From: a virus
UHGV virus genome: UHGV-0114973
Reading direction: 5' to 3' (one strand)
Length of the DNA stretch: 18,293 bases
Below are positions 11-1,875 of the stretch, piece by piece (position 1 is the first letter of the stretch; each line of letters begins with the position of its first letter). The translations under genes and the position numbers were made by a program. Under the pieces are notes generated by a model. It was not told the DNA's origin. It saw only the letters and a list, made by a program, of their open reading frames with translations, and did no database searches.

Positions 11-637
11 ATGGAAGCACGTTACAACACGACACCTGTTATTTATGAATACGCGCGTGCTGTAGCTGCAAACCAGATGACAATCAACGCACCATTGACT
101 GAAAAAATGACAATGGATCTGACGTTTGTAGCACAGGATTTATCAGCACCGTCAGAAACAGCGCTACCAGGTTCCGGGTATGTTGAATTCGTGGCTAACG
201 AAGCGTACAACACCGTAACGAACCTGAACCGTGTACGACTGACCGGGATTGATGATAGTGGCCTCAGTACGTTCCTGAAAGACGTTACTGTCACTGTGAA
301 TAACAACGTGTCAGGTGAAAACGTGCTGGGCGTGATGGGTGCTGCATTTACCAACATCGGTAACCTGGAAATCACGATGGAAACTGAAACAGTGATGACG
401 GACGGTGCTGTACTGGCTGCGATCCGTAACAACGCAACAGTCAACTTCGAACTTGCCGGGGTAAACGGTGATGGTGCAATTGTGGTTAACATCCCCGCTA
501 TGACACTGGGTGACGGTTCTAAAAACCTTGCAACGGGCGAAAAAGTGAAAGTCACTGTTAGCGGTAACGCCCACGAAGAAGAGTCGATCGGTTTTATGAT
601 TGGGTTCAGCTTGTTCCCGTACTTGCCTACAGCATGA
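11..637 (+). CDS. major tail (tube) protein; may extend upstream of the window
   Basis: 208-aa ORF directly upstream of the chaperone pair and tape measure gene, the conserved position of the major tail protein. Ser/Thr/Val/Asn-rich beta-type composition. Followed by a hairpin terminator at 658-681. The frame is open to the window edge, so the true start could lie upstream. Confidence 0.6.
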   Translation: MEARYNTTPVIYEYARAVAANQMTINAPLTEKMTMDLTFVAQDLSAPSETALPGSGYVEFVANEAYNTVTNLNRVRLTGIDDSGLSTFLKDVTVTVNNNVSGENVLGVMGAAFTNIGNLEITMETETVMTDGAVLAAIRNNATVNFELAGVNGDGAIVVNIPAMTLGDGSKNLATGEKVKVTVSGNAHEEESIGFMIGFSLFPYLPTA

Positions 638-657
638 CATGGTAGATGGTAGTGGTT

Positions 658-681
658 GCCCGGTTAACGCCGGGCTTTTTT
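658..681 (+). terminator. rho-independent terminator after the major tail gene
   Basis: GCCCGG (658-663), 6-nt loop TTAACG, CCGGGC (670-675), then TTTTTT (676-681). Lies 21 nt after the major tail stop codon (635-637). Confidence 0.5.
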
Positions 682-683
682 GT

Positions 684-947
684 TTATATTTTACCCTCCT
701 GCATCAATCCTTCAGCAACAGTCATTTGGTAACGTGGTGCTTTCCATGCTTGAAGTGCTTTTTCTGCACCTTTTTGTGTTTTATACGGTTTGATACTTGT
801 TAAAATAGCAGTTGTAATACCTGCACCATAACCACGGTCTGTTTCCTGACAAACTCGAAACAAACCATCAATTTGTTTAACTACTAAACGTTTGAACGCA
901 ATATTGCCCGTTTCTTTGTTGATGTAGCGTTGAATTACCCGTTCCAT
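684..947 (-). CDS. small hypothetical protein (87 aa), antisense insertion in the tail operon
   Basis: ATG at 947-945 preceded by GAGGG with an 8-nt spacer. No signal peptide or transmembrane segment. Sits in the 448-bp gap between the major tail gene and the chaperone gene, on the opposite strand. No family recognised by eye. Confidence 0.45.
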   Translation of the reverse strand: MERVIQRYINKETGNIAFKRLVVKQIDGLFRVCQETDRGYGAGITTAILTSIKPYKTQKGAEKALQAWKAPRYQMTVAEGLMQEGKI

Positions 948-979
948 TATTTTAACCCTCAGTTCGTTTCGTTGAGTTA

Positions 980-1008
980 AAGATACCTTAACAGGTGTAA
1001 TTCGTCAA
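980..1008 (-). promoter_or_regulatory. candidate sigma70 promoter for the antisense ORF 684..947
   Basis: On the minus strand: -35 TTGACG (complement of 1003-1008), 17-nt spacer, -10 TATCTT (complement of 980-985). Places the transcription start about 25 nt upstream of the ATG at 947. Confidence 0.35.
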
Positions 1009-1025
1009 GAATTATTTTAAATATC

Positions 1026-1054
1026 TTGCGTAATTTGTACAGAACTATTACTAT
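1026..1054 (+). promoter_or_regulatory. candidate sigma70 promoter ahead of the chaperone and tape measure genes
   Basis: -35 TTGCGT (1026-1031), 17-nt spacer, -10 TACTAT (1049-1054), in an AT-rich region about 30 nt upstream of the ATG at 1086. Confidence 0.3.
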
Positions 1055-1085
1055 CTAATCGTCTACTACATAAAAGGTAAAAACC

Positions 1086-1508
1086 ATGTCAAAGTTTGAC
1101 CATCTGAAAAAAGCACTTTCTCCACTGGTGCTGAAGTCTTCTGCTGAACTGATTTTAAATGAAAATTTCAGTATCACCGTGTTGAACCTGAACACCGCTA
1201 ACCAGGTATATAACGTAACAGTCGCGGACTATGTAAAACAGAACGGTGTGTTGTCTGAAAATTTCTTTAAAAAACTGTGGAATCAGGAATATACACCAGA
1301 AGGTGTTAAGTTCGTGGCTAACGTTCTTATGCTGGACTGGAAACTGATTGGTGAAGATGACAAACCGGAACCATTCAGTGTCGAAGAAGCTATTGAATTG
1401 TTAAGTGATGAACGTTTCGGTCAGGTGATCTACAGCCGTGTTATTCAGTTCGCAATTAATTCCGCATTCTTCCAGGACGAATGGGAAAAACAGATTGAAA
1501 AAAACTGA
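1086..1508 (+). CDS. tail assembly chaperone (lambda gpG-like)
   Basis: 140-aa acidic ORF immediately upstream of the tape measure gene. Ends at a slippery heptamer with a -1 frame extension, the conserved G/GT architecture. AAAGG ribosome-binding site 8 nt upstream. Confidence 0.7.
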   Translation: MSKFDHLKKALSPLVLKSSAELILNENFSITVLNLNTANQVYNVTVADYVKQNGVLSENFFKKLWNQEYTPEGVKFVANVLMLDWKLIGEDDKPEPFSVEEAIELLSDERFGQVIYSRVIQFAINSAFFQDEWEKQIEKN

Positions 1509-1804
1509 TCGACTTCCTCTTGTGGAACGATAAGACAGACGGGGACGACCTGGACTGGGTTACACAAGGGGCGGCTGCACGTGGTATATCTGTTCCGGTT
1601 GTTGTACAGAAACGTCCTGAATTGCGACCTGATGCTATCTTTTACTGGAATGCTTATTTGGACCTGATGGAAGCTGATTGGGTTGCTTGTGAGCGGTATG
1701 CACGGGTGTATAACGTTGATGTACAATTCCTATGGAAATTATTGATAGCATTGCGGTCTGCACGTGTTGCCGAGATGAAGAAAAATAAACATAAGCCCGG
1801 TTAG
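1086..1804 (+). CDS. tail assembly chaperone GT-like fusion made by -1 frameshift at 1499-1505
   Basis: Zero-frame ORF 1086-1508 joined to the -1 frame reading ...KKLIDFLLWNDKTDGDD... through to the TAG at 1802-1804. The position before the tape measure gene is the canonical G/GT location. Confidence 0.55.
1499..1505 (+). other. candidate -1 programmed ribosomal frameshift site (A AAA AAC)
   Basis: Heptamer A_AAA_AAC sits in the zero frame of the chaperone gene, directly before its TGA stop (1506-1508). The -1 frame opens exactly here (preceding -1 frame stop at 1496-1498) and stays open to 1804. Confidence 0.55.
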
Positions 1805-1817
1805 TTCCGGGCTTTTT
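1793..1817 (+). terminator. hairpin plus T-tract after the GT extension
   Basis: AAGCCCGG (1793-1800), loop TTAGTT, CCGGGCTT, followed by TTTTT to 1817. The stop codon of the extension lies in the loop. Confidence 0.45.
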
Positions 1818-1875
1818 CATATATTATGGTTAACATGTTAAACTGTGTACATGCTTCACGAAAAGGTTAATCAAC

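Follow-up and report, generated by a model that had tools for sequence, protein, structure and literature searches.

The whole stretch of phage DNA considered here (18,293 nucleotides [nt] of UHGV virus genome UHGV-0114973; hereafter, the window) carries a small antisense gene in the gap between its major tail tube gene and its tail assembly chaperone gene. This gene, an 87-amino-acid (aa) open reading frame (ORF) with an ATG start, occupies positions 684..947 of the minus strand. It is preceded by a 5′ leader (948..974, minus strand) that contains the 19-mer CAACGAAACGAACTGAGGG at 974..956 and, within it, the ribosome-binding site GAGGG at 960..956; direct reading places 8 nt, TTAAAATA, between this site and the ATG at 947. 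Upstream of the leader, a putative sigma-70-type promoter spans 980..1008 on the same strand (−35 TTGACG at 1008..1003, a 17-nt spacer, and −10 TATCTT at 985..980), and an extended promoter-class motif, AAAATAATTCTTGACGAATTACA, at 996..1018 (minus strand) comprises an A/T-rich upstream block, the −35 hexamer, and a downstream ATTACA. An earlier sequence-only reading of this DNA had described the antisense ORF between the two tail genes, GAGGG with its 8-nt spacer, and the promoter hexamers and their spacing, and each is found where it should be; “near-consensus,” however, overstates a core promoter that matches the consensus at 9 of 12 positions.

The 87-aa ORF is a genuine gene under purifying selection. 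Its product aligns with phrog_27467 (PHROGs v4) from end to end, residues 1-87 on profile positions 1-87 (E 3.3e-41), and the ratio of nonsynonymous to synonymous substitution rates (dN/dS, Nei-Gojobori) is 0.098 between the window and Klebsiella phage KP13-27 (dS 0.63) and 0.036 between the homologs of phages CAjan and Mansfield; pairs more distant than these were saturated at synonymous sites. Constraint on the reading frame, on which the sequence-only reading had staked the gene, is therefore present, with dN/dS of about 0.04 to 0.10. Existing annotations of the gene in PDP46, in Bas82 (where it is Bas82_0044), and in KP13-27 read “hypothetical protein.” In the Sashavirus 536P12 (locus L012, 2184-2448, minus strand), the gene is frameshifted at an A-run near codon 59 (ACACAAAAAGGTG to ACACAAAAAAAGCG), which yields a 78-aa product; the shift could be a homopolymer sequencing error or else mark a recent pseudogene.

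Within the siphophages, the window belongs to the 9NA/Sasha group and is mosaic. Its bases 1-2400 are 97% identical to Escherichia phage PDP46, its bases 1-1824 are 98% identical to Bas82 (KarinMuster), and Salmonella phage Sasha is ~96% identical to the aligned part of the window; no single database record covers 80% of the whole. Phages of the 9NA type are virulent (PMC4153490). We extracted the interval from the tail tube stop to the chaperone start from 13 relatives and found it to be a variable slot. It holds the 87-aa gene in the window, PDP46, Bas82, and KP13-27 and the frameshifted form in 536P12; an unrelated 207-aa ORF (phrog_30881) in Sasha and VLCpiS10a; a 55-aa ORF (phrog_20712) in AVIO78A; a 58-aa ORF (phrog_10407) in SP-062, with a degraded 58-aa ORF in 9NA; and remnants only in BU9. 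IMG/VR contigs supply another cargo gene, as well as the 207-aa gene in a frameshifted form. In PJ16, BDX09P1, and phi_KPN_H2, the slot is empty, with 98-105 nt between the tail tube and chaperone genes, and the promoter and the gene are both absent.

Every filled slot carries its cargo antisense, and the cargo genes have no detectable homology to each other; when the 55-, 84-, and 132-aa proteins were compared with the 87-aa family by hhalign, the probability of homology was at most 2.7%. The exchanged segment runs from just 3′ of the ribosome-binding site to just before the tail tube hairpin. Terminator loop variants are common to PJ16 and the window and, likewise, to BDX09P1 and PDP46; that empty-slot and carrier phages have the same variants suggests recent gain or loss. 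G+C content is 0.33-0.42 over 626..1125 (cassette and promoter), compared with 0.49 in the tail tube gene. Comparison with related phages, which the sequence-only reading had proposed as a check, thus reveals filled, replaced, and empty slots between near-identical tail genes. The slot is variable (hyperplastic) and the 87-aa gene is accessory; because the slot varies among sister phages, the gene is dispensable for tail assembly.

To describe the promoter across different cargo, the region 5′ of the cargo ATG was aligned from 11 slot-bearing phages, and column identities were calculated over 8 nonredundant sequences. Mean column identity is 0.96 in the 30 nt 5′ of the −35, 0.98 in the −35 hexamer, 0.74 in the 17-nt spacer, 0.88 in the −10 hexamer, 0.93 in the leader, and 0.57 3′ of the ATG; the −10 reads TATCTT in Escherichia and Salmonella phages and TATAGT in Klebsiella phages. 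Conserved hexamers held at a fixed spacing, with a spacer that drifts, form the pattern expected of a working promoter. Promoter and leader are identical in kind before four or five unrelated ORFs in sister phages, and the putative antisense promoter is conserved across phages with different cargo genes; its activity and timing are predicted from these sequence patterns. The core promoter proves nothing alone, because the 2.4-kilobase region contains 8 sites of 9/12 quality, against 4.5 ± 2.5 in shuffled sequences. The extended motif AAAATAATTCTTGACGAATTACA is present in a single copy in the window, with 0 copies expected.

This arrangement could also be read in another way, with a functional antisense promoter and a passenger ORF, the transcript serving as antisense RNA or exerting transcriptional interference on the tail tube or chaperone genes. 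The retention of promoter and leader before unrelated and degraded cargo (9NA and BU9) would fit such a role, as would antisense transcripts that may run into the tail tube gene for want of a minus-strand U-tract. Yet three relatives without the promoter have near-identical tail genes, the ORF is under strong purifying selection, it is accompanied by different promoters in unrelated phages, and in 9NA, where the cargo is degraded, the −35 is also weakened (TTGGCG). We consider a purely regulatory promoter very unlikely.

The position of the cassette relative to the tail genes suggests a separate unit. On the plus strand, the tail tube gene converges on the cassette and is followed by an intrinsic terminator at 658..681 (stem-loop 658..675, T6 at 676..681). 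The stop codon of the antisense ORF (684..686) is separated from the T-run by 2 nt and from the stem by 8 nt; it is adjacent to the hairpin of the tail gene, as had been noted, but the distance of 3 nt given in that earlier description is approximate. The annotators of AVIO78A labeled the equivalent hairpin bidirectional. On the other side, an element upstream of the chaperone gene (1026..1054, plus strand) fits a weak promoter, TTGCGT-17-TACTAT, with a −35 that matches at 3 of 6 positions and a −10 of the form TAnnAT. This element lies 17 base pairs from the antisense −35 in the opposite direction, so that the two stand back to back, and it is found in all relatives, including those with empty slots. 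Where the slot is empty, as in PJ16 and BDX09P1, TTGCGT comes directly after the terminator T-run, and TTGCGTAATTTGTACAGAACTAT-TAnTAT is followed by the chaperone gene.

Tail transcription would, by this arrangement, largely stop at 676..681 and restart after 1054, with the chaperone upstream element as the putative restart point. The sequence-only reading had placed the gene inside the tail operon; instead, the cassette sits exactly between the tail terminator and the chaperone upstream element, which abut in empty-slot phages, and is therefore probably insulated from the operon rather than part of it. A head-on collision with tail transcription, which had also been proposed, is possible but, given the insulated position, would be limited to terminator read-through. 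The conflict that remains may come from the other direction: since the minus strand lacks a U-tract, antisense transcripts may continue into the tail tube gene at its 3′ end.

Two further observations concern the chaperone upstream element. The sequence TTGCGTAATTTGTACAGAACTAT is almost invariant across relatives, its spacer included, and may be a late-promoter or activator site. The 10-mer TGTACAGAAC (window 1036-1045) is common to the regions 5′ of the chaperone gene and of TerL in Bas82 (21675 and 58477); we considered it as a shared late-promoter motif and dropped it because the chaperone and TerL copies are the only ones and are too few.

The predicted antisense promoter is one instance of a standard promoter class that is repeated through the phage genome. 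The 15-mer AAAATAATTCTTGAC, which is embedded in it, has 12 exact copies in Bas82 and, among the 47 loci examined, is restricted to 9NA-like loci. The motif TAAAATAATTCTTGAC(G/A)(G/A)ATT(A/G)CA has ~14 copies on both strands of the complete Bas82 genome, and at 12 of these, the first ORF starts 58-65 nt downstream. Each antisense block interrupting the structural genes is headed by a site of this class, and such sites also precede an antisense superinfection-immunity/endonuclease pair, an operon ending in the DNA polymerase gene (replication), and several small-gene operons. Conservation of the motif reaches well past the −35 hexamer on both sides, and a phage or host regulator could bind there besides RNA polymerase. 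Our literature search returned no mention of the motif AATAATTCTTGAC, of phrog_27467, or of the peptide EGLMQEGKI; in the literature apart from Zeng et al. 2019 (J Virol), we found no description of the shared promoter motif or of cargo replacement in the slot.

Related modules occur elsewhere. The full promoter-plus-leader module, including AACGAAACGAACTGAGG, is present at a second locus with different flanks in two IMG/VR contigs of Klebsiella-type relatives (L026 and L029), where it is followed by ORFs of 84 aa and 132 aa. An A/C-rich leader of the form CA(T/A)CGAAACGAA...GAGG lies 3′ of the −10 and before the 87-aa gene in unrelated phages as well (Wifcevirus and IMG/VR contigs); it is located at 956-974 (minus strand) in the window, at ~2470-2490 in locus L005, at ~2970-2995 in locus L039, and in loci L030-L034 and L047. 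The same leader also precedes unrelated 94-aa ORFs with a different promoter motif, AATAGCACTTTTTGTTAAAA. It may be a translational leader that different genes have in common, or else it may belong to the segment that travels with the 87-aa gene.

A second variable slot separates the chaperone gene from the tape-measure gene. The window has nothing in this slot (1805-1875), a terminator at 1793..1814 being followed by the tape-measure upstream region. In Bas82 (L008, 4801-6030) and PJ16 (L011, 3054-3980), the slot is filled by two antisense genes behind the same AAAATAATTCTTGAC promoter, which encode an Imm_superinfect protein (PF14373, 3.9e-17) and a T5orf172/DUF723 endonuclease.

Homologs of the 87-aa protein are encoded in 59 phage records by tblastn, nearly all at 87 codons, and the family forms 25 protein clusters in a large protein collection. 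An exhaustive hidden Markov model search of 1.8 billion representatives returned 11 clusters only, which indicates a small and compact family. Homologs of almost fixed length occur in at least seven unrelated enterobacterial phage lineages. They lie in the early operon of Seuratvirus CAjan, after a UvsW-like helicase gene in Wifcevirus, among small genes near a tRNA in the T4-like Muldoonvirus (Muldoon), near the genome end in Stephanstirmvirinae 05F01, last in an operon that converges on the lysis genes in Rogunavirinae MM01, after the tail tube gene in BUCT618, and, alone and antisense, among the head genes of Cornellvirus W5_chr3. The carrier groups that can be classified, 9NA and others, are virulent. 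We detected no homolog in 185,579 species-representative bacterial and archaeal genomes by a peptide-pattern scan, in 5,426 complete Escherichia coli genomes by a DNA search only, or in 72,556 plasmids by a protein search; the family is seen only in phage records and phage-like contigs.

No neighboring gene is conserved across these contexts, and a candidate two-gene cassette was rejected, as the ~200-aa genes 3′ of the Wifcevirus and Muldoon homologs match neither each other nor Sasha gp43. What recurs is a candidate promoter: among 10 distinct genomic contexts, made up of the window and nine further phages or contigs, 8 have a sigma-70-like site (9/12 or better) whose end falls 20-60 nt upstream of the ATG, compared with 0.71 expected from shuffled sequences. 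In W5_chr3, for example, TTGACA-17-TAATAT (10/12) ends 29 nt before the ATG of the homolog. In that Salmonella phage (L007), a 70-aa Cys-rich ORF without annotation, at 2761-2973 on the plus strand, begins across the stop codon of the homolog (ATGA) and is followed by a terminator, so that the antisense unit there seems to consist of two genes.

These contexts bear on whether the product might be a nonessential accessory factor of tail or virion assembly. Three lineages do have the gene in a structural module: in Sashavirus and BUCT618 it follows the tail tube gene, and in Cornellvirus W5_chr3 it stands among head genes. Its homologs in Wifcevirus, Seuratvirus, Muldoonvirus, and Stephanstirmvirinae, however, lie in replication or early regions; the slot is empty or otherwise filled in sister phages whose tail genes are ~96% identical; and the gene is on the opposite strand, behind a promoter class that also drives replication genes. 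An assembly role is accordingly highly improbable.

The predicted protein is basic, soluble, and small (pI 9.81; 9.8 kDa; 15 Lys plus Arg against 8 Asp plus Glu) and has no hydrophobic segment. The family alignment has 21 invariant positions, including a C-terminal E-G-L-M-x-x-G-x-I that reads EGLMQEGKI in the window. A confident AlphaFold model (mean predicted local distance difference test score [pLDDT], 84.7) has four beta-strands and then two helices, with lower confidence over the conserved C-terminal 18 residues (pLDDT 66-67). The family looks modular: the 61-aa relative P0034 has a different, shorter N-terminal half and the same C-terminal RYxMTLAEGLMLEGKI, and the relatives P0030, P0031, P0033, and P0035 keep the N-terminal beta domain and have unrelated C termini.

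Sequence searches of Pfam, NCBIfam, PADLOC, and PDB gave no match for the 87-aa protein, the best Foldseek match in PDB was below significance (E 0.33), and a structure search of BFVD returned the protein's own family only. The profile and structure searches that the sequence-only reading had called for thus produced no significant sequence or fold match outside the family. Its description of a cytoplasmic product without a recognized family stands as far as the absence of a membrane segment and the Pfam, NCBIfam, PADLOC, and PDB sequence searches are concerned, with the correction that the protein is a member of phrog_27467. Three domain leads were discarded: the WGR domain (PF05406) had no hit in any of 23 family members even at an E value of 10, the DUF1508/UPF0339 lead was insignificant, with no Pfam DUF1508 hit in the same 23 members at E 10, and DUF1391/YdfA (PF07151) reached 13.7 bits, below the cutoff of 27.3, over 18 residues only, with weak matches in 7 of the 23.

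Two other roles can be weighed against these properties. The main competing explanation is a small basic factor that binds DNA or RNA and, for instance, modulates transcription or protects or marks DNA. The charge and isoelectric point of the protein and its invariant K19, K53, Y55, K56, and K63 would suit such a factor. Against it, all structural scores are below significance, the WGR and DUF1508 searches found nothing in the family, and conservation peaks in a short C-terminal helix of no marked basic character; we judge such a role unlikely. Alternatively, the gene might exclude or hamper competing phages or otherwise defend the infected cell, a role to which the Imm_superinfect and T5orf172 endonuclease genes under the same promoter motif in the second slot of Bas82 and PJ16 lend some weight. 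The product is nevertheless cytoplasmic, with no membrane segment, it has no PADLOC hit, and any benefit in a virulent phage would be confined to one infection cycle, which leaves this role a decidedly unlikely one.

We propose instead that the region 684..1022 is a self-contained accessory unit (a promoter, a leader, and one ORF) in a hyperplastic slot of a virulent 9NA/Sasha-like siphophage. Host sigma-70 RNA polymerase would start at the stereotyped promoter (AAAATAATTCTTGAC, 17-nt spacer, TATCTT), with a predicted start at ~973. The minus strand would then be transcribed independently, the tail tube terminator and the chaperone upstream element separating the unit from the tail genes. The resulting 9.8-kDa basic cytoplasmic product would be dispensable for virion assembly and would move horizontally among virulent enterobacterial phages. 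As far as this, a self-contained unit with its own promoter, independent transcription, and a dispensable mobile product, we consider the proposal probable, if by no means secure. In a further step, put forward more tentatively, as the likeliest single role though still less probable than not, the product would be an early host-directed effector, for host takeover or counterdefense, that binds a conserved cellular macromolecule; the suggestion that the invariant C-terminal helix EGLMQEGKI acts as the docking element is more tentative again.

Several points weigh against this accessory-unit reading. The core hexamers by themselves are unremarkable and at the level of chance, and a literature search found no transcriptome for any carrier phage. 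The minus strand of the hairpin at 658..675 has no U-tract and is no canonical terminator for the cassette. Because the promoter class also precedes a unit running into head genes (Bas82 13740+), early timing is not established. The 536P12 frameshift, unless it is a sequencing error, implies that the gene is easily lost. Finally, a basic protein such as this one could bind nucleic acid rather than protein.

The flanking tail genes are of known kinds. The 3′ part of the major tail tube gene lies at 11..637 (plus strand; PF18906 Phage_tube_2, 2.8e-17; phrog_290), and Sasha, PDP46, and AVIO78A already carry the homologous gene under the name major tail tube protein. The tail assembly chaperone pair (plus strand; phrog_8233; Phage_TAC_18, PF23812) consists of the gene at 1086..1508 and, at 1520..1804, its extension through a −1 frameshift; a joined chaperone coding sequence is annotated in Sasha, 9NA, and AVIO78A. 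The A-run GAAAAAAAC at 1497-1508, just 5′ of the chaperone stop, together with the position of the 1520..1804 ORF in the −1 frame, agrees with the programmed −1 frameshift annotated in these three phages. No known RNA family or tRNA was found above threshold in the region. An Rfam Trp_leader match at 1711-1820 (plus strand) is below threshold (25.8 bits, gathering score 41; E 0.012); it spans the last part of the chaperone extension together with the terminator behind it and probably reflects no more than the hairpin of that terminator.

Small accessory genes of virulent phages with their own promoters are a rich source of host-takeover and anti-defense proteins, and the 87-aa family, being compact, highly conserved, and widespread, is a reasonable candidate for functional screening. 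Its function should be easy to test, since the gene is present in the cultivable BASEL phage Bas82 and natural noncarriers exist (PJ16 and BDX09P1). The slot and the repeated motif also provide a map of gene gain and loss in 9NA-like phages and of genes that are likely coregulated, which is useful for annotation and engineering. Current concepts are unchanged by these findings, which hold little surprise for the specialist.

Morons, in the definition of Juhala and Hendrix, are extra genes in lambdoid and other temperate phages. The 87-aa gene resembles them in its place between conserved structural genes, its presence/absence polymorphism, its lower G+C content, and, as judged from sequence and conservation, its own promoter. 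It differs from them in that the phage is virulent, the family was not found in bacterial genomes, and there is no prophage expression or lysogenic conversion; moreover, the terminator here belongs to the converging tail gene and is not canonical on the cassette strand. The moron layout assigned to the gene by the sequence-only reading therefore holds for its position, polymorphic presence, predicted promoter, and deviant G+C content and fails for prophage expression; given the virulent phage type and the lack of a homolog in the bacterial genomes and plasmids searched, this is not a classical prophage-expressed moron.

The closest mechanistic analog of the slot appears to be the PeSL cassettes of T4-type phages, in which a strong sigma-70-like promoter motif is repeated before nonessential small ORFs, and differences among close relatives are bounded by the motifs and by stem-loop terminators (Arbiol et al. 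2010, PMC2839356; PMC4122927). In the 9NA-like phages, too, a promoter motif is repeated through the genome (Bas82), and ORF-precise replacements are bounded by motif and stem-loop; this replacement pattern suggests that recombination may occur at the promoter motif. The differences are that the carrier is a siphovirus of an unrelated lineage, that the motif sequence is another one, and that promoter and stem-loop flank the ORF rather than forming one composite motif, the hairpin being the tail gene terminator. It is conceivable, if somewhat doubtful, that the 87-aa proteins are an uncharacterized effector family, confined to virulent enterobacterial phages, that neutralizes a conserved host factor or immune system through the EGLMQEGKI helix, almost always from a private sigma-70 promoter, and that the ~14 promoter-leader modules serve 9NA-like phages as landing pads at which cargo is exchanged with ORF precision, which would make them a siphovirus counterpart of the T4 PeSL system.

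Interspersed small genes have been described in 9NA-like phages (Casjens et al. 2014, PMC4153490), and the 87-aa gene is one of them. It is a moron-like accessory gene of an ordinary kind, in a hyperplastic slot, and a member of phrog_27467, which PHROGs lists with no assigned function. What our analysis adds to the known literature is the stereotyped promoter class, the exchange of cargo under one promoter and leader, and the spread through virulent phages of a family that usually comes with its own predicted promoter and carries an invariant C-terminal motif.

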